64,000 nt of DNA from Thermoanaerobaculia bacterium (GTDB lineage: Bacteria > Acidobacteriota > Thermoanaerobaculia > Multivoradales > JAHEKO01): positions 29,110-93,109 of the forward strand of contig JAWKHP010000003.1 in assembly GCA_041394745.1 (NCBI GenBank). Direction: 5' to 3'. The number at the start of each line of letters is the position of its first letter. Positions within the stretch are counted from its first letter, which is position 1. A program made the translations under genes and the position numbers. The notes beneath the pieces were generated by a model that saw only the letters and a list, made by a program, of their open reading frames with translations, was not told the DNA's origin and searched no databases. Below, in pieces: positions 3,257-54,004 of the stretch.

Positions 3257-4366
3257 ATGTGCGCCGTGGACCGCTTCGCGCCGCTTCGCCGTCCGTCGAC
3301 CCTCGCCGCGCTCCTCCTCTTCGTCGCTTCCTCGGCGGTGGCCGACGGTCGCTTCGACGCCTTCGGCGAGCTCCTCGCCGCCTTCCGGACGCAGAACGCG
3401 ATACCCGCGCTGGTGGCCGTCGTGGTCGAGGACGGCGCGATCGCCTGGGAGTCCGCGTGGGGGACGGCGGACGACGAGGGCGAGGTGCCGGCGACGCCCG
3501 ACACGGTGTTCTGGATCGCGTCGGTGACCAAGCCGCTGGCGGCCACCGCGATCCTGGCCGAGGCGGCGGCCGGCCGGCTCTCGCCGGCGACACCGCTCTC
3601 CGCGGACCCCGGCTGGGCGGAGACGTGCGAGTGGCTGCGTGGTACACGGATCCCGTTCGGCGGCGGCACCACGCTCGAGGACGGCACGGTGCTGCCGCCG
3701 GTGGCCTGCGACCGGGAGCTGACGATCCGCGACGCGCTCGACATGAAGGTGAACGGCCCCGCCGGCCACGGCTTCGTCTACAACCCGATCGTCTACGCGC
3801 GCCTCGACCGCGTGATCGAGGGTGCTGGCGGCCGCCCGCTGCGCGAGATCGTGCGCGAGCGCGTGGTCGACCCCGCGGGCATGCGCGACACCGCGCTCGG
3901 CTGGCGCGACCCGGACGGCGGCGCCGCCCTGCGCCTGCTGGCGCCGCCCTTCGCCCTCGACGAGGAGGGCCGCCCGCAGAAGGCCCCCTTCCCCGACGAC
4001 GACTTCCGCGCCGCCGCCGGCGTCTACACCTCGGCCCGCCAGCTCGCCCGCTTCGACATCGCCTTCGACTCCGATGCCCTGCTCCCACCCGAGGTCCGCG
4101 CCGAGATCGTCGACGCTCCCGAGGGCTACTCCTCCGGCTGGTTCCACCAGACCTGGGACGGCCACCGCCTCCTCTGGCACTCCGGCTGGGAGCCCGACGC
4201 CTACTCGGCCCTCTACCTCAAGGTCCCCGACGAGCACCTCACCCTCATTCTCCTGGCCAACACCGAGGGCCTCTGGTGGGGCAACTCCCTGGTGCGTGCG
4301 GAGGTCGAGAAGAGCCCCCTGGCGGCGGCCTTCCTCGCCGCGTTCGTCGAGCCGGCCGGCGAGTGA
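3257..4366 (+). CDS. beta-lactamase-fold serine hydrolase (class C/PBP-like), secreted
   Basis: ORF 3257..4366 has a signal-like N-terminus, the SVTK (SxxK) active-site motif within FWIASVTKPLAATAIL, and a length of about 370 aa. Confidence 0.7.
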   Translation: MCAVDRFAPLRRPSTLAALLLFVASSAVADGRFDAFGELLAAFRTQNAIPALVAVVVEDGAIAWESAWGTADDEGEVPATPDTVFWIASVTKPLAATAILAEAAAGRLSPATPLSADPGWAETCEWLRGTRIPFGGGTTLEDGTVLPPVACDRELTIRDALDMKVNGPAGHGFVYNPIVYARLDRVIEGAGGRPLREIVRERVVDPAGMRDTALGWRDPDGGAALRLLAPPFALDEEGRPQKAPFPDDDFRAAAGVYTSARQLARFDIAFDSDALLPPEVRAEIVDAPEGYSSGWFHQTWDGHRLLWHSGWEPDAYSALYLKVPDEHLTLILLANTEGLWWGNSLVRAEVEKSPLAAAFLAAFVEPAGE

Positions 4367-5858: not shown

Positions 5859-7296
5859 ATGAGACTCGGAGCTGTTGCCGTCGTTGCGCGACCCTCGTCC
5901 TCGCCGCCACCGGTCCCGCTGCGCCGCTGTGGCCGCGATCTGGGAGGGCGGCACTTCGAACGCCGGGGGACCGGTTGGCTGCAGGTCGAGGCCGACGAGC
6001 TCGTTCGAGGTGCCCGCGGGTGCTCACGGTGCGGTTCCGCGACGGGGTGGAGCGCGCGGCGCAGGATGCGGTGCTGGCCCAGCTCGGCGGCGTCGAGCTG
6101 CGCCGGGCGATCACCGGTTCGTGGACGTCGAGATCGCCGAGGGGCGCGACGTCCTCGACGCCGTGGCGGCCTTCGCGGCCCGCCCGGAGATCGCGGTGGC
6201 CGAGGCCAACACCTTCGGCGCCTACGCGCTGATCCCCAACGACACCCTCTACGGCAGCGAGTGGCACCTGCCTCAGATGCAGGTCGACGACGCCTGGGAC
6301 GTGACCACCGGCTCGACCCAGATCGTCGTCGCGGTGCTCGACTCCGGGACCGAGTTCACCCACGAGGACCTCGGCCTCGGGGTCGACGGCTACCGCAACG
6401 TCTGGCTCAACCCGGGCGAGGACGCCTGGTCGGATCCGACGAACCCGGCCACCGGCAACGGGGTCGACGACGACGGCAACGGCTTCATCGACGACTGGCA
6501 GGGTTGGGACTTCAACAACGGCAACAACGACCCGGCCGGGACCTTCTTCCACGGGACGGCGGTGGCCGGCGTCATCTCCGCGAAGACCAACAACAACCGC
6601 GGTGTTGCGGGAGTGGCGGGGGGCAACGGCGCGCCGGGCGTGAAGGTGCTCCTGGCCGGTGTCGGCGACAGCGCTCCCAACGGCGCCATCCTGGACGACG
6701 CCATCCTGTACGCGGCCGACAGCGGCGCCAGGATCATCCAGCTCAGCCTCACCGTCGGTCAGAGCTCGGCCATCGACGCCGCGCTGGCCATGGCCTACGA
6801 CACGTTCGGCCTGACGATCATCTGCTCGTCCGGCAACGGCGGGACCTCGAGCGTCGGCTACCCGAGCTCCGACTCGCACGTCATGGCCATCGGTTCGACG
6901 GGCATGACCGACCAGAAGAGCAGCTTCTCCCAGTACGGCGTGCTTCTGGAGCTGGCCGCCCCGGGTGAGGGGATCTGGATGCTCGACCTCAACGACGGCT
7001 ACGGGCCGAGCTCGGGCACGTCCTTCTCCTCGCCCAACACCTCGGGCACGGCGGCGCTGGTGCTGAGTCTCGCTCCGACGATGACCAACGCCCAGCTGCG
7101 CCAGCTGCTGCACGACACCGCGGCCAAGGTCGGCGGCTACAACTACAACTGGAACCCCGGCATGCCGGGCCACTCCATGGAGCTGGGCTACGGCCGGGTC
7201 GACGCGCTGGCCGCCGTTCAGGCGGTCCAGGCGCCGATCTTCGAGGACGGATTCGAGAGCGGCGACACCAGCGCGTGGACCACGTCGGCTCCCTAA
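5859..7296 (+). CDS. subtilisin-like S8 serine peptidase with an I9-type propeptide; the N-terminal quarter is split over three frames
   Basis: The catalytic triad is visible (VAVLDSGTE for Asp, HGTAVAG for His, GTSFSSP for Ser) in ORF 5875..7296. Propeptide pieces RVLTVRFRDGVERAAQDAVLAQLGGVELRRAITGS (frame of 5975..6232) and FVDVEIAEGRDVLDAVAAFAARPEIAVAEAN (frame of 5875) imply about two single-base indels near 6030 and 6118. The C-terminus ends ...APIFEDGFESGDTSAWTTSAP*. Confidence 0.65.
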
Positions 7297-7307
7297 GGCG
7301 GTCGACG

Positions 7308-8821
7308 GTGAGGCTCGCACTCGCTCTGCTCGCCCTCCTCGCCGGAAGCGTCGCGCCGTCGCGCGCGGCCGACCCGGCGGCCGAGCTCGATGCCTATACG
7401 GCCGCCGCGGTCGATGCCTGGGAGGTCCCCGGTCTGGCGATCGCCGTCGTCAAGGACGGCGAGCCCGTCTTCGAGCGCGGCTACGGCGTGCGCGAGCTGG
7501 GCCGCGAGGAGCCCGTCGATGCCGACACGCTCTTCGCGATCGGCTCGACGACCAAGGCCATGACGGCCGCCACGGTCGCCCTCCAGGTCGATGCCGGACG
7601 GCTCGGATGGAACGACCGCGTCGAGGAGAAGCTCCCCTGGTTCGAGCTCTCTGACCCGTGGGCGAGCCGGGAGCTGACCGTACGCGATCTCCTCACCCAC
7701 CGCGCCGGCCTCGGCAACGTCGACCTGCTCTGGTATGGAGCCGACCGCACCCGGCGCGAGATCCTCGAGAAGATGGCCGCCGTCGAGCCCGCCTACTCGA
7801 TGCGCGACGGCTTCGTCTACCAGAACATCCTCTACGTGGCGGCCGGCGAGGTGGCGGCGGCTGCCGCCGGCAAGAGTTGGGAGGAGCTGCTGGTGGGGGG
7901 CCTCCTCGAGCCGCTCGGCATGGACCGCACCGTCGTCACCGTCGGCGACACGACGGCGATGGACGACGTGGCCAGCCCGCACGACGAGGTCGCCGGCACG
8001 CTGACCGTGATCGAGAACGCCCGCTTCGACAGCATGGGCCCGGCGGGCACCGTCTGGTCGAGCGTCCACGACATGTCGCTGTGGCTGCGCATGCTGCTGG
8101 CCGAGGGACGGGTGGGAGAGACGCAGGTGCTGACGGAGGCGTCGGTGGCCGAGCTGCTGCGGCCGCAGACCCTGCTCGACCTCTCGCAGCTCTACCCCGA
8201 CGTCGAGCTCCTGGCACCGCACTGGACGAGCTACGGTCTCGGCTGGTTCCAGCTCGACTACCGCGGTCGCGCCGTCTCGTTCCACACCGGCTCGATCGAC
8301 GGCATGTCGGCGATCGTGGGGATGGTGCCCGACGAGGACCTCGGCGTCGTCGTTCTCGCCAACCGCGATCACGCCGAGGTGCGTCACGCCCTGCTCTGGA
8401 AGGCACTCGACCTCTGGGGCGGGGAGGCCGACGGTCGCGACTGGAGCACCGAGCTCATGGCCCTCTACGATGGGCTCGCGGCCGAAGCGGAGACGCGGCG
8501 TGCGGAGCGCGACGAGGCGCGCGTGACCGGGACCTCTCCGACCCTGCCGTTGAGCGACTATGTGGGCGTCTACTCGAACCCCCTATACGACGACGTCGAG
8601 GTCGTCGAGCGCGACGGGGGTCTGGCCCTGATCCTCGGCCGACCCTGGCCGGAACGCTCGAGCATTGGCACTACGACACCTTCCGGCTGGCCTTCGACCG
8701 CGCCTGGCGCGGCGACGCCCTGGTCACGTTCACCGTCGGCCCCGACGCCCGGCCGGATCGCCTGGAAGCCCTCGACCTCGCCTTCGAGAGACGGCCCGCG
8801 CCCGAGCGGGCACCCGAGTGA
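7308..8821 (+). CDS. beta-lactamase-fold serine hydrolase with a C-terminal lipocalin-like domain; apparent frameshift near 8640
   Basis: A GTG start gives the signal peptide VRLALALLALLAGSVAPSRAADP, and the STTK motif is present. After ...LALILG the frame continues in ORF 7658..8821 (TLAGTLEHWHYDTFRLAFDRAWRGDALVTFTVGPDARPDRLEALDLAFE...). Confidence 0.65.
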
Positions 8822-8874
8822 AGCGCGTCGCGGGCGGCTGACCTCGCCCGCCGCCTGGGCTACGATTCGGGGCA

Positions 8875-10701
8875 GTGCCGTCACAGACCCTGCCCGACAC
8901 GGTCGGGCGCTACGAGATCGTCGCGGAGATCGGCCGCGGCGCGATGGGGCGCGTGTTCCGCGCCCGGGATCCGAACGTGGATCGCGAGGTCGCGGTCAAG
9001 GTCATGGCCTCGCCCTTCCTGGCCGGGTCGGACGCGGAGGACGAGGAAGCGCGGCAGCGCTTCCTGCTCGAAGCCCGGGCGGCGGGCAGGCTCAACCACC
9101 CCGGGATCGTGATGGTGCTCGACGCCGACAGCGATCCGGCCACGGGAGCCCCCTACATCGCCATGGAGCTCGTCGAGGGCCGATCGCTCGACAACCTCCT
9201 GCATCAGTACCGGAGGCTCGTTCCGGCCCGGGCCGTCGATCTGGTCGCCCAGGCGGCGCGAGCGCTGGCGTACGCCCACGACCGCGGGCTCGTGCACCGC
9301 GACATCAAGCCGAACAACCTCCTGGTGGCGGATTCCGGGAGCGTGAAGATCGCCGACTTCGGCATCGCCAAGCTCCCGGCCGAGGCGCTGACGCTGCCCG
9401 GAAGCGTGCTCGGGAGCCCCGGCTTCATGTCGCCCGAGCAGGCTCGCGGCGAGCCGCTCGACGGCCGCTCGGACCTCTTCTCGCTGGGCTCGGTGCTCTA
9501 CCGGGCGCTCACCGGGGCCGAGCCCTTCGGTGGCGACGACATCCCCAGCGTTCTCTACAAGGTCGCGCACGTGGATCCCCGGCCGGCTCGCGACCGCGCG
9601 CCGGAGCTTCCCGAGTCGCTCGAGCGCGTGCTCGAGCGCGCCCTGGCCAAGGAACGCCGGCACCGCTTCCGCGACGGCCGGGAGAAGGCGGCGGCGCTCG
9701 ACGCCGTGGCCGTTGAGCTGGCGGGCGGGCCGCCGGCGGCCATCGCGCCGCCGCCGCGCCCTTGGGACCCGGGGGCCGCGGACCCGACGGCCGCGGACTC
9801 CTCACCGGGATCGACGGAGAGGCTCACGGACACGCCCGAGAGCTCGGAGAGCGACGCGGCGCCGGCGACGACCGGAGCCCGCCGCGAGGCGGAAGCTCCC
9901 GCCTCGCGGTCGAAATCCGGAGGCGGCGATCCGCGTCCGCGGAGCCGGGCACGGCACGCGGCCTGGCTGGCTGCGGCGGTGACGGTCGCCGTGGCGGCGG
10001 CGCTGCTCGTCTCGGCCCTCCACGACGGCTCGGCCGGACCGCCCGCTCCGCCCCCGACCGCCGAGGCGACGGCGAGCTCGTCGGAGCTCGAGGAGCTCGC
10101 GAGCGCCGACCGGGTGCCGCCGGCGGGAGCCGGCGCCGTCGACCGGCGCTCCGCCGGTGCCTCCGGCCGGTCCCCCGCCGCCTCTCCCCCTCCGGGAGGC
10201 CGGAGCCGCAGTGGGAGCCGGGATGGAGACGCCGCCGCCGGGCCCGGGCCTTCGTGGACCGTGCCGGAGAAGACCGGTGCCCGGGCCGCCGACGGGGAGA
10301 TCGCTGCGCCCGCACAGGCCGAGGCCGGCTCGCGCCGGCCGGAACACCGCGAGGAGTCGGAGAGCAAGGCGTCCGAGTCGGCGAGCCTCCACATCGTCTA
10401 CAACAACCGCCTCTCCTCCGGCAGTCTCGCCCTGCTGGTCGACGGTCGCACCGTCTGGTCGACGCGCGTCAGCAGCCCGCAGAGCGTGGCGCAGCGTTTC
10501 GCCGGCCGGGAGCGGCGCTACGTCGTCCGCGTTCCCGCCGGCGGCCACCTGCTGCAGCTGCGCCTCGTCGGGCGCGGACCCGGCATGGAGGTGAACGTGA
10601 GCGAGACCATCCGGGGCACCTTCCCCGCGGGGGGGCGGCGGGACCTGCGGGTGTCGCTCAACCCCCTCACCAACAACCTGAAGCTGTTCTGGACGAGCTG
10701 A
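8875..10701 (+). CDS. Hanks-type Ser/Thr protein kinase with one TM helix and a C-terminal extracytoplasmic beta-rich (PEGA-like) domain
   Basis: ORF 8875..10701 has a GTG start. It carries GRGAMGRV, VAVK, HRDIKPNN, DFG and SPE motifs, a TM segment AAWLAAAVTVAVAAALLVSAL, a low-complexity linker and a C-terminal domain. Confidence 0.75.
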   Translation: MPSQTLPDTVGRYEIVAEIGRGAMGRVFRARDPNVDREVAVKVMASPFLAGSDAEDEEARQRFLLEARAAGRLNHPGIVMVLDADSDPATGAPYIAMELVEGRSLDNLLHQYRRLVPARAVDLVAQAARALAYAHDRGLVHRDIKPNNLLVADSGSVKIADFGIAKLPAEALTLPGSVLGSPGFMSPEQARGEPLDGRSDLFSLGSVLYRALTGAEPFGGDDIPSVLYKVAHVDPRPARDRAPELPESLERVLERALAKERRHRFRDGREKAAALDAVAVELAGGPPAAIAPPPRPWDPGAADPTAADSSPGSTERLTDTPESSESDAAPATTGARREAEAPASRSKSGGGDPRPRSRARHAAWLAAAVTVAVAAALLVSALHDGSAGPPAPPPTAEATASSSELEELASADRVPPAGAGAVDRRSAGASGRSPAASPPPGGRSRSGSRDGDAAAGPGPSWTVPEKTGARAADGEIAAPAQAEAGSRRPEHREESESKASESASLHIVYNNRLSSGSLALLVDGRTVWSTRVSSPQSVAQRFAGRERRYVVRVPAGGHLLQLRLVGRGPGMEVNVSETIRGTFPAGGRRDLRVSLNPLTNNLKLFWTS

Positions 10702-27117: not shown

Positions 27118-28590
27118 TCAGTTGGCGGTCGTCGTCCAGTGACTCGTGTCGCCGCTCTCGAACCCGTCGAGGAAGAACGCGCCTTCGCCGGCCCACGGAC
27201 AACCCTCCCCGTTGTGGATGCAGGCGATGCGGCTGCCCGCTCCAACCACGACGTAGAGCTCACCGAGGTGGTCCTCGGCGAACCCGTAGGTCCCCGAGAA
27301 CCCGCTGGCCCAGCACTGGGCGTTGATGGCCGCCGGGTTGGCGGGGTTGAGGGTGGTCGTCTTCCAGATCTGCCCGCAGGCCGCGTCGCTGTAGAGGTAG
27401 TCCCCCGCGATCGAGGGCACCTCGGTGCCACGGTAGCGGAAGCCCCCCATGACCGAGGCCCAACCGCCGTTGTGGTGGCAGAGGATGGGATCCCAGAAGC
27501 CGCTCGAGCGCGGGAACTCGCAGGTCGTACCCGGGTCCACCGGGCAGCCGGTCACCGAGCAGCCGGACTCGTCGTTGTTCGACGTCTCGCACCCTTCACG
27601 GCACGACCATCCGAAGTTCACGGGCGCGGCGAGGGCGGCGCGCTTGAGGTTGATCTCCTCCCACTTGTTCTGACCCACGTCGCCGATGTAGAGGTCGCCC
27701 GTCGTCCGGTCGAAGCTGAAACGGAACGGGTTGCGCAGCCCCATCGCCCAGACCTCGTCGCAGGCGGGATCCTGACCGAAGAACGGGTTGGTGGACGGCA
27801 CCGTGTAGTTGCTCGGCTCGCCCGTGGCGTCGCAGTCGTCCGGGGGGCCGCCCAGCGGGTCGATTCCGCGCACGTCGATGCGCAGCATCTTGCCGAGCAG
27901 GGTGGTGTTCTGCTGGCCGTCGCCGTTGATGCCCTGATTGCCGTCACAGCCGCCGCCGCCGTCGCCGATCGAGATGTAGAGGAAGCCGTCCGGGCCGAAC
28001 GCCATGTTGCCGCCGTTGTGGTTGCTGGCGGAGGAGTGCTCGATGACGAGGATCTTGGTCGCGGACCCCGGGTCGGCCACGTCGGGGTTCCCGGCCGAGC
28101 GCTCGTAGCGTTCGATGACGACGTCGCCCAGCGTGCCGCCGCCGAGGTCGCGGCGGGTGTAGTAGACGTAGAAGCGTCCGTTGGTCACGTAGTCGGGATC
28201 GGCCACCATCGAGAGCAGACCGCGCTCGCCGCCGAAGGAGACCGGCCCGCCGCTGCTCTGGCGCAGGTCGAGGAACATCGTCGGCAGGATCTCGCCGGTC
28301 CCGCCGTCCCAGACGAGGATCGCCCCCTCCTGGGTGGCGATGAGGCGCTTGCTCCGGCCGTCGTTCGGATCCACGAACGAGATCGGCGTGTTGGCGCCGC
28401 TCGGGAAGTCCGACGGACCGACGATGTTCGTGATTCCGACCGGAGCGCCCGGCGTGCAGGTCGTGCCGCACGACACGTTGAAGCAGCTCGTCGCGCCGTG
28501 AGCCGGTGCCCCGAGGAGGGCGGCGGCGAGGACGGCGGAGACGGGGACGAGGAAACCGGCGAGCCGGCGATGGGCGGTCGAGAACGTCAT
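27118..28590 (-). CDS. PQQ-dependent sugar (glucose/sorbosone) dehydrogenase-like beta-propeller protein, secreted
   Basis: The Met at 28590 gives MTFSTAHRRLAGFLVPVSAVLAAALLGAPAHG. Motifs GLLSMVADPDY, NHNGGNMAFGPDGFLYISIGDGGGG and GLRNPFRFSFD are present. It ends ...GAFFLDGFESGDTSHWTTTAN*. Confidence 0.7.
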   Translation of the reverse strand: MTFSTAHRRLAGFLVPVSAVLAAALLGAPAHGATSCFNVSCGTTCTPGAPVGITNIVGPSDFPSGANTPISFVDPNDGRSKRLIATQEGAILVWDGGTGEILPTMFLDLRQSSGGPVSFGGERGLLSMVADPDYVTNGRFYVYYTRRDLGGGTLGDVVIERYERSAGNPDVADPGSATKILVIEHSSASNHNGGNMAFGPDGFLYISIGDGGGGCDGNQGINGDGQQNTTLLGKMLRIDVRGIDPLGGPPDDCDATGEPSNYTVPSTNPFFGQDPACDEVWAMGLRNPFRFSFDRTTGDLYIGDVGQNKWEEINLKRAALAAPVNFGWSCREGCETSNNDESGCSVTGCPVDPGTTCEFPRSSGFWDPILCHHNGGWASVMGGFRYRGTEVPSIAGDYLYSDAACGQIWKTTTLNPANPAAINAQCWASGFSGTYGFAEDHLGELYVVVGAGSRIACIHNGEGCPWAGEGAFFLDGFESGDTSHWTTTAN

Positions 28591-39614: not shown

Positions 39615-40799
39615 TCAGGGCGCGACGACGCTCCAGGCGGAGGTGTCGCCGGTTTCGAAGCCGTCGGCGAAGACCAGCGGCCTCGCCACGGCCACCTTGA
39701 GGTCGAGGTCGCCATTGTCGAAGTAGCTCACCACCGGGAGGCCGTCGGCTCCGAGGACGATCGACGTGAAGTAGCCGACGTCCCCGGCGACGTCGACGGT
39801 CTGCAGGGTGGCGGCGGAGCACGCGGCGTCCGCACACCAGGCGACCTCGAGATCGCCGTTCGTCACGTCCGTGTAGCTCACGATGGGCAGGCCCCCGGCT
39901 CCGCGGACGATCGAGGTGTACTGCCCGACGTCCTCGATGCCGTCGACGGTCACCGAGGAGGCGGACGCGCAGCTCGCGTCGTCGCAGTGCGCCACCTTGA
40001 GATCGAAGCCGGTCGAATCCAGGTAGCTGACGACCGGCAGGTCATCGGCGCCGATGGCGATCGCCGTGTAGGCGCCGACGTTGCCGTCACTGTCGACGGT
40101 GTGCCGCTCGGCGGAGGCGCAGAGGAGATCGCCGCAGTGCGCCACCTTGAGGGCGTTGTTGCCGTAGTCGCGGTAGCTGATGACCGGCAGCCCATCCGTG
40201 CCGATGGCGATCGAAGTGTTCTGTCCGACGTCCGGGCCGTCGTCGACCACCTCGAGATGGGCGGAGGTGCAGGGCACGTCGGCGCAGTGCGCCGCCTTCA
40301 ACGTGCCGTTGTCGAGGTCCAGATAGCTGATGATCGCGAGCCCGTCGATCCCGATGGCGATCGAGGTGTGGAAGCCCACGTCACCGGCGCTGTCGAGGGT
40401 GGTGAGGGTGGCCGTCGAGCACGCGACGTCCTCGCAGTGCGCCACCCGGAGATCGTTGGCGGCAGCGTCGAGGTAGCTGACGATGGCGAGCCCGTCGGTG
40501 CCGACGGCGATCGAGGACTCGAACCCCGGATCGCCCTGGTCGTCGATGGTGTGCAGGGTCCTCGTAGCGCAGAGGGGATCGTCGCAGTGGGCGATCTCGA
40601 GCGTGGAGTGGGTGAAATCGCGGTAGCTCACGATCGGCAGCTCGTCCGCGCCGAGGGCGATCGAGGTGTAGCCCCCTACCGCGTCGGCGCCGTCGACGAT
40701 GCCGATTCGCCAGGCGGGCAGCCGAGCTCCACCGCGGGCCGCCGTGGCCGCTGCTGCAAGGATCAGGCAGGCGATCCGAAACGTCCGTCGAGGATCCAT
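39615..40799 (-). CDS. secreted repeat protein with about eight 44-aa beta-propeller-like repeats, each carrying a CxDxxC motif
   Basis: The signal peptide is MDPRRTFRIACLILAAAATAARGGA. The repeat unit is VDxxGDVGxYTSIAIGxDGLPxVSYxDxxNxxLKVAHCxDxxCxxA. The protein ends ...LVFADGFETGDTSAWSVVAP*. Confidence 0.6.
   Translation of the reverse strand: MDPRRTFRIACLILAAAATAARGGARLPAWRIGIVDGADAVGGYTSIALGADELPIVSYRDFTHSTLEIAHCDDPLCATRTLHTIDDQGDPGFESSIAVGTDGLAIVSYLDAAANDLRVAHCEDVACSTATLTTLDSAGDVGFHTSIAIGIDGLAIISYLDLDNGTLKAAHCADVPCTSAHLEVVDDGPDVGQNTSIAIGTDGLPVISYRDYGNNALKVAHCGDLLCASAERHTVDSDGNVGAYTAIAIGADDLPVVSYLDSTGFDLKVAHCDDASCASASSVTVDGIEDVGQYTSIVRGAGGLPIVSYTDVTNGDLEVAWCADAACSAATLQTVDVAGDVGYFTSIVLGADGLPVVSYFDNGDLDLKVAVARPLVFADGFETGDTSAWSVVAP
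39660..40720. repeat. about 8 tandem coding repeats of 132 bp inside the repeat-protein gene
   Basis: The repeat units have near-identical lengths and recurring codons (gtcgac...ggcgacgtcggc...agctacctcgac). They are coding repeats, not CRISPR. Confidence 0.5.

Positions 40800-50725: not shown

Positions 50726-54004
<3,279 letters not shown>

Follow-up and report, generated by a model that had tools for sequence, protein, structure and literature searches.

The closest described systems to the one considered here are C-terminal sorting signals. LPXTG, PEP-CTERM, GlyGly-CTERM, MYXO-CTERM and the T9SS (type IX secretion system) C-terminal domain (CTD) have each brought a dedicated enzyme or secretion machine to light, and signals of this sort are routinely used to predict surface and secreted proteomes. 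MYXO-CTERM is a signature followed by a transmembrane helix and a basic cluster (PMC11980579). T9SS cargo is attached to the surface following removal of the CTD (PMC7468200). We consider a tail of 19 residues that ends three proteins encoded in a 64,000-nucleotide stretch of contig JAWKHP010000003.1, from a Thermoanaerobaculia bacterium. This whole stretch is the window, and its G+C content is 71.9%. Thermoanaerobaculia abound in soils, sediments and wastewater, and almost none of them has been cultured. The tail is genuine and recurs as a C-terminal tag on exported proteins whose folds are unrelated. C-terminal sorting signals as such are already known; the tail is a widespread and apparently uncatalogued tag, most likely of this kind.

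Recurrence and selection

The three tails were examined by translation and by a six-frame search. The tail of an S8 peptidase (IFEDGFESGDTSAWTTSAP) is at 7237..7296 on the plus strand, with the residues encoded at 7237-7293 and the stop at 7294-7296. The other two are on the minus strand. One ends a glucose/sorbosone dehydrogenase (GSDH) at 27118..27177 (FFLDGFESGDTSHWTTTAN; tail 27177-27121, stop 27120-27118), and the other ends a beta-propeller protein at 39615..39674 (VFADGFETGDTSAWSVVAP; tail 39674-39618, stop 39617-39615). Translation confirms all three at the coordinates that the original prediction gave, and the C-termini read PIFEDGFESGDTSAWTTSAP for the S8 peptidase, FFLDGFESGDTSHWTTTAN for GSDH and LVFADGFETGDTSAWSVVAP for the propeller. 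That prediction called the tail identical in the three proteins. It is shared but not identical, since only 11 of the 19 positions are invariant, including the Trp and two Phe. The common pattern is [ILVF]Fx-DGFE(S/T)GDTSxW, then 5 residues and the stop. Across the six frames of the 64 kb the motif is present exactly 3 times and always 5 codons ahead of a stop, so the claim of one stop position, 5 codons after the Trp in each protein, was right. The folds are as unrelated as had been said: Pfam assigns Peptidase_S8 and GSDH, and AlphaFold2 builds a seven-bladed propeller. Given 11 invariant residues, a fixed distance to the stop and three unrelated proteins, chance is ruled out.

The original prediction staked itself on the tail recurring beyond these three copies, and it does. 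A profile was built from the three 30-residue C-termini and scored against 1.84 billion representative proteins, which share less than 50% mutual identity. It finds 2,864 of them at E<=1e-3. Among the best 150 of the 2,864 there are 76 copies with the motif exactly 5 residues from the C-terminus. The consensus of these 76 terminal copies is (P)(P)[ILV]F[A]DGFESGDTSAWSx[TV][VA]P-COOH, with 13 positions near-invariant. Conservation in this protein set extends outside the regular expression, to F at -18 (75 of 76) and P at -1 (69 of 76).

A second scan was blind to the stop codon. It used a DNA pattern for DGFE[ST]GDT[ST]xW on one genome per GTDB species and gave at least 119 loci. Among the matches listed, the stop falls 0-8 codons after the Trp in 117 of 130 and exactly at +5 in 74 of 130. 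Most of the 13 exceptions have the appearance of stop-loss or frameshift read-through, and a few are real internal copies. Residues outside the DNA pattern are conserved here too, with Phe at -2 in 69 of 75 listed matches and a terminal Pro in 64 of 75. A further 15 variant tails, such as IFADGFESGSSGRWSSTVP, adjoin seed tails within the same loci. Carriers can cluster, as do the 3 in this window. Labels from the Acidobacteriota lineage are found on 99 of the 119 listed loci (Thermoanaerobaculia, Multivoradales, Sulfomarinibacteraceae, 'Holophagae', Acidobacteriota). The others are unclassified metagenome-assembled genomes (MAGs) and a small number from elsewhere, namely Polyangiaceae, 'Deltaproteobacteria', Gammaproteobacteria/Kangiella and Crocinitomicaceae. 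Numerous assemblies made independently contain the tail, some of them on contigs of more than 1 Mb.

Nucleotide identity is 68% within the tail. It is 31% in the 60 nt upstream and 28% in the 60 nt downstream, which is background. Every Gly codon and both Ser codon families are in use within the tail. The copies in the window differ from each other at synonymous sites, at third codon positions and in the use of AGC or TCC for serine, and their 3' flanks are unrelated. Because synonymous codons vary and the flanks are at background identity, we argue that selection acts on the peptide and not on a DNA element. Purifying selection, with synonymous turnover, covers all 19 tail positions.

Carriers and the site that the tail occupies

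A crude test finds a Sec signal peptide in 68 of 85 complete carriers, and several of the others visibly have one. The passenger peptidases belong to the S8, M14, M28 and trypsin-like groups. Other passengers are GSDH, propellers of the FG-GAP, BNR/sialidase-like and LVIVD types, right-handed beta-helices, cadherin/Big_9 arrays, cytochrome c7 and multihaem cytochromes, and a GDSL lipase. In the AlphaFold2 model of the 391-residue S8 peptidase, residues 374-391, in the tail, have a predicted local distance difference test score (pLDDT) below 50, against more than 90 for the catalytic domain. In the propeller model, residues 380-394 are also below 50, and neither model gives the tail any secondary structure. 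Since the passengers are diverse and the tail is unstructured in models of two unrelated carriers, we regard it as an appended, autonomous element. It can also be repeated. Tandem pairs of complete tails, 21-24 residues apart, are found at the C-terminus of seven proteins (P0015, P0016, P0020, P0031, P0034, P0040, P0041), and proteins P0005 and P0025 have a jelly-roll-like domain with the motif on each side.

The three passengers in the window can be described in turn. The S8 serine peptidase is annotated at 6121..7296 on the plus strand (NCBI MEZ5330807.1, 391 aa; Pfam Peptidase_S8 2.1e-40) and is a 100% match to a Thermoanaerobaculia MAG protein. Its 5' part, with the signal peptide and prodomain, is disrupted at 5859..6120 on the same strand, where tblastn of the 480-aa orthologue P0155 matches frames +2, +1 and +3. 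This region (about 5859-6120) has at least 2 frameshifts relative to the 480-aa orthologues, which carry signal peptides. The NCBI annotation of 391 aa has no signal peptide because the 5' end is spread over three reading frames. Either an indel arose in assembly or the gene is a pseudogene. The original prediction gave every one of the three proteins a signal peptide; this holds for two of the genes, and the S8 gene does not have one in frame. Two genes of the PF00144 serine beta-lactamase/DD-peptidase family flank the S8 gene, at 3257-4366 (+) and 7308-9716 (+); the latter carries a signal peptide together with a DUF3471 extension.

The dehydrogenase is a pyrroloquinoline quinone (PQQ)-dependent glucose/sorbosone dehydrogenase at 27118..28590 on the minus strand (NCBI MEZ5330824.1, 490 aa; Pfam GSDH 4.2e-27; an exact database match, from the same MAG contig as the S8 protein). 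Its Sec signal peptide is MTFSTAHRRLAGFLVPVSAVLAAALLGAPAHG, and locus L002 holds an orthologue with the same tail. The propeller protein, at 39615..40799 on the minus strand, has a signal peptide and CxDxxC repeats. Its seven-bladed model has 28 strands and a mean pLDDT of 92.4. The best PDB matches by Foldseek are the Photorhabdus PLL/PHL propeller lectins (E 1e-13), and the protein has no family in Pfam or NCBIfam. Most of its homologues (P0275-P0394) end in another conserved motif, AHCSNxFCVPYxRRR before the stop, and those with a named source are Chloroflexota or Dehalococcoidia. Smaller groups of homologues end in SPWWITGGR or VAVEGxxxIFE.

The S8 orthologues (45-73% identity) are informative about the site of the tail. 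They carry differing C-terminal elements directly after a conserved GYGRVNA helix. Some have the full tail or a degenerate version that retains only [ILV]FxDGFE. Short endings of the form [ILV]Fx[DN]GFE before the stop, single or doubled, are Gammaproteobacteria-labelled (Marinicella litoralis, Wenzhouxiangellaceae, Lysobacteraceae). Others have the T9SS CTD PF18962, as in Aureitalea marina, and the Eisenbacteria- and Planctomycetota-labelled ones have FlgD_ig PF13860. The doubled short tails (LIFSNGFESDIIFANGFE) have the form LIFxNGFE(xx-xxxx)IFANGFE and end exactly at the Glu. They are on S8 peptidases of marine Gammaproteobacteria-like origin (P0193, P0206-P0208, P0216, P0218, P0222, P0225, P0233, P0242). 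A metagenome scan adds doubled short tails on at least two other passengers, at only two loci (L120:1530-1580 (-) and L121:162-212 (-)). The doubled short tails may form a class that is sister to the tail of Thermoanaerobaculia.

The choice-of-anchor families are another line of evidence. By the NCBIfam definitions, families B and Q take their name from their occurrence with alternative C-terminal anchors. Choice-of-anchor B (TIGR04312) is found on tail carriers at 509 and 469 bits, against a cut-off of 100, and at locus L008 this domain ends about 6 residues ahead of the tail. Choice-of-anchor Q (NF041518) lies directly before the tail at 111, 62 and 33 bits, against a cut-off of 25. Known secretion or anchoring domains take the place of the tail in relatives from other phyla. 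The NCBIfam models for rhombosortase-, myxosortase- or T9SS-dependent M36 peptidases also touch carriers, but we reject them: they reach about 35 bits against cut-offs of 1500-1700 and cover a shared MAM-like region only.

Origin, role and rival explanations

The sequences suggest where the tail came from. Multi-copy matches to the profile are internal; they fall at position 1 of the PF14099 (Polysacc_lyase) model and at position 3 of the CBM_4_9 one. Strand 1 of CBM_4_9 (PF02018), Polysacc_lyase and Laminin_G_3 is a near-identical [ILV]FxDGFESGDxSxW. Internal and terminal copies share [PV][ILV]FADGFESGDxSAW[ST], with 13 of the 14 consensus residues in common. They differ at two positions. At position 7, 91 of 96 terminal copies have Thr and 73 of 121 internal ones have Leu, Phe or Met; at the last position, 70 of 96 terminal copies have Pro and 42 of 121 internal ones have Gly. 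The tail has the N-terminal strand motif of a jelly roll, [ILV]FxNG/DGFExG...W, but it is not a complete beta-sandwich of about 130-210 residues; only the first 20 or so profile positions are present before the protein ends. A jelly-roll strand 1 has a domain behind it, a hydrophobic core residue and a Gly, while the tail has no domain behind it, a Thr and a terminal Pro. The shared sequence together with the two differing positions argues for a recruited strand or hairpin. The tag thus seems to descend from the opening strand or hairpin of jelly-roll domains like CBM4/9 and PF14099, and to have acquired constraints of its own.

We favour reading the tail as a C-terminal tag for sorting or attachment that has no membrane anchor and is restricted in lineage, occurring mainly in the Thermoanaerobaculia and related Acidobacteriota, and put the probability of this at about 60%. 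In this scenario the protein would be exported through Sec by its N-terminal signal peptide, which is seen for most carriers. The acidic, aromatic tail of about 19 residues would then hang from the folded passenger on a short and often Pro-rich hinge, where a partner in the periplasm, in the outer membrane or on the surface could recognise it. This partner would decide the fate of the protein after export, whether that is passage through the outer membrane, retention at the cell surface or both. The core of the signal would be [ILV]Fx[DN]GFE, and the SGDTSAWSxTVP half would be an elaboration specific to the lineage. Its role would be comparable to those that the T9SS CTD, PEP-CTERM, GlyGly-CTERM and MYXO-CTERM have in other phyla.

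Several points weigh against this. The carriers all come from MAGs or metagenomes, and the only cultured match listed, Acanthopleuribacter pedis, has the motif internally, before a jelly-roll-like domain. The argument from substitution at the C-terminus is an analogy and not a proof. The 14-residue motif is also internal, as strand 1 of real jelly-roll domains, so part of the conservation could reflect ancestry and not signalling. Finally, neighbour genes were clustered from 8-kb neighbourhoods of the 119 listed loci and the window, about 1 Mb of flanking DNA, and no recognition or processing partner was found there. The clusters hold only families that are common in the phylum, namely pairs of extracytoplasmic function (ECF) sigma factors and Ser/Thr kinases, sulfatases and sigma-54 activators.

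Ser/Thr kinase genes, often paired with an ECF-type sigma factor, adjoin tail genes in 7-13 of the 119 listed loci (L011, L025, L031, L034, L071, L102 and others) and once in the window (8842-10701 +). This adjacency may be a regulatory linkage or may reflect mere abundance in the phylum.

A more specific mechanism for such a tag, raised in the original prediction as donation of a beta-strand to a partner, has gained real ground from the match to jelly-roll strand 1. In a donor-strand or 'mini-dockerin' scenario, the strand or hairpin of the tail inserts into an incomplete jelly roll, or into some other strand-deficient domain of a surface or scaffold protein. Many enzymes would then be tethered non-covalently, or by an isopeptide based on Asp or Asn. 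The tail aligns with the start of the jelly-roll models, as the internal motifs do, and shares their sequence. The tandem tails and the doubled short tails look like hairpins, and the tail is free in the AlphaFold2 models. The alternation of Asp and Asn at a core position would fit isopeptide chemistry, and it would be equally typical of beta-turns. However, nearly all tails have Thr at the core-facing position, where jelly-roll strands have Leu, Phe or Met, which argues against insertion into a canonical hydrophobic core. Many tails stop right after the Trp or after GFE, and no strand-deficient acceptor was found in the roughly 1 Mb of flanking DNA. We consider donation of a strand unlikely, if worth keeping in view. 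The original prediction also suggested that neighbouring peptidases read the tail, which would make it a C-terminal degron or a PDZ ligand for a processing peptidase (S41/Prc/Ctp or tricorn) that activates passengers or turns them over. It named an S41 peptidase at 12.2 kb and a tricorn at 50.7 kb. The second is real. It is a full-length tricorn-type protease at 50762-54004 on the plus strand, in which Pfam finds PD40 propellers, Tricorn_C1, PDZ_Tricorn and Peptidase_S41, and its N-terminus resembles a signal peptide. A tag at the extreme C-terminus would also suit a PDZ domain or a degron reader. The first peptidase is not supported, as Pfam detects no S41 domain in the overlapping open reading frames tried at 11.8-13.9 kb. 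Reading frames in that region look fragmented. Neither S41 nor tricorn families recur beside the tails of the 119 listed loci, and the tricorn in the window clusters with kinases through shared repeat domains only. PDZ domains typically prefer a hydrophobic C-terminal residue in a fixed register, and a C-terminal Pro is a poor ligand for them. The tail is conserved 5-19 residues from the end, its final residues vary from 0 to 8 in number, its usual last residue is Pro and its short relatives end in Glu. A peptidase as the reader of the tail is therefore quite improbable.

The rest of the alternatives do away with a signal altogether. The tail could fold back on its passenger and stabilise the last domain, either as a strand that caps it or as a Ca2+ site. 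Many tails do follow the last strand of a jelly-roll or MAM-like domain (WYIDDVKIQ), and the invariant Asp, Glu and Asp could bind Ca2+. This fits poorly with passengers of unrelated folds, with a tail that AlphaFold2 leaves unstructured on both the S8 fold and the propeller, and with orthologues that function although this site holds a T9SS CTD or no tail, and we give it little credit. Even less probable is a vestige, in which truncation has removed C-terminal jelly-roll or CBM domains and left the tails behind, without function. Its appeal is that the motif equals strand 1 of such domains and that a few proteins (L055, P0025, P0005) still have the motif followed by a full domain. However, independent truncations would not share one stop position, exactly +5 in more than half of the listed matches, across dozens of unrelated families. 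Nor would a vestige be expected to show purifying selection at all 19 positions with synonymous turnover, or a terminal signature (Thr at position 7, Pro at the end) that is absent from the internal copies. The least credible scenario is a cause at the DNA level, where the stop and the 19 codons before it are brought in by a mobile element, a repeat or a recombination cassette, or where assembly has gone wrong. Carriers cluster and the tail is on many unrelated genes, as such a cause would have it. But identity falls to 28-31% just outside the tail and synonymous variation inside it is free, third codon positions vary among the three window copies, whose 3' flanks are unrelated, and an artefact would have to be repeated in many independent assemblies with contigs above 1 Mb. 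The results on position, selection, orthologues and models contradict the vestige, the DNA element and the structural cap.

A tail so well conserved has practical value. Current annotation pipelines do not flag it. It offers a cheap means of listing the exoproteome of this lineage, including peptidases, lectin-like propellers and adhesins, and a handle for finding the recognition machinery through phylogenetic profiling. If the partner is found, a tag that is short, autonomous and unstructured could serve for display or secretion.

Comparison with known sorting systems

Searches of the families and of the literature did not turn up this tail under another name. The tails alone match no family in Pfam or NCBIfam (release of June 2026) at E<=10, and no model in either covers the tail in full-length carriers. 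The claim that no named sorting class fits is therefore upheld. A profile search of the PDB with the tails gave a single weak and meaningless match. A word-indexed protein search with a 41-aa tail alignment gave 3 candidates, all S8 fragments, from an index too coarse for a 19-aa motif. Our search of the literature on the motif, on sorting signals of Thermoanaerobaculia and on choice-of-anchor domains found nothing that describes the tail. Compared by eye and from general knowledge, the consensus does not fit an outer-membrane beta-signal, an RTX nonapeptide, an EF-hand or dockerin, or the Bacteroidota O-glycosylation sequon D-(S/T)-(A/I/L/V/M/T).

The tail resembles PEP-CTERM, GlyGly-CTERM, MYXO-CTERM, LPXTG and IPTL-CTERM in being a short C-terminal signature that is specific to a lineage, that ends many unrelated exported proteins and that goes with choice-of-anchor domains. 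The architecture is different. The tripartite signals read by exosortase, rhombosortase, myxosortase or sortase have a signature, a transmembrane helix and a basic cluster, while in our tail 0-8 mostly polar residues follow the Trp and then comes the stop, both in the 117 of 130 listed matches and in the three window tails. There is no transmembrane helix after the motif and no basic cluster at the C-terminus; Lys and Arg are absent from the consensus, whose last residue is Pro. The original prediction had said as much of the window tails, and it holds for the genomic instances too. Because both elements are absent, the tripartite classes of the sortase and exosortase type are excluded. Tripartite tails resembling IPTL-CTERM do occur in the same lineage, at L076:3454-4329 (-), which ends in PIPSLSPSGLALLFLILAGAGCWMLFRR, and at L092:5505-6356 (+), which ends in AIPTLDGRGALVFAALLAAVSIAMLRRRLV, so classical sorting signals coexist with the new tail. 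One multihaem-cytochrome-like protein (L080:5381-6379 (-)) has a PT-rich linker, the tail LLFGDGFETGDTSAWSTVIP, a hydrophobic (transmembrane) helix and a final RLKER. It looks like a tripartite hybrid and is exceptional.

The tail is like dockerin-cohesin pairs, donor strands and SpyTag-type systems in being a small C-terminal module that could attach diverse enzymes to one partner, and in its acidic nature, with an Asp, a Glu and a further Asp that are invariant. Dockerins have about 60-70 residues with duplicated EF-hand-like loops. Neither a cohesin-like nor a Catcher-like partner turned up in the neighbourhoods of the 119 listed loci and the window.

The T9SS CTD (type A, PF18962/TIGR04183, and the related FlgD_ig-type CTDs) shares several features with the tail. 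It is C-terminal, it has no transmembrane helix and its cargo is exported by Sec and has many folds. There are many carriers per genome, the system is restricted to certain lineages, and the CTD is found at the same site in S8 orthologues. None of SprA, PorV and PorU turned up among the window genes scanned, and no whole-genome search for a T9SS was made. While the T9SS CTD folds into a beta-sandwich of some 70-100 residues, the tail has 19 residues, matches no hidden Markov model, is unstructured in models and belongs to Acidobacteriota. We tentatively extend the comparison one step further, with rather less confidence than in the tag itself. The tail may represent a new sorting or display system of diderm bacteria, with a tag of about 19 residues that derives from a jelly-roll strand, has no transmembrane helix and is shortened to [ILV]Fx[DN]GFE in some Gammaproteobacteria. 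Such a system would have roughly a hundred cargo proteins in each genome of the Thermoanaerobaculia and dedicated machinery, possibly working by strand complementation, that is unrelated to sortases, exosortases, rhombosortases and the T9SS.

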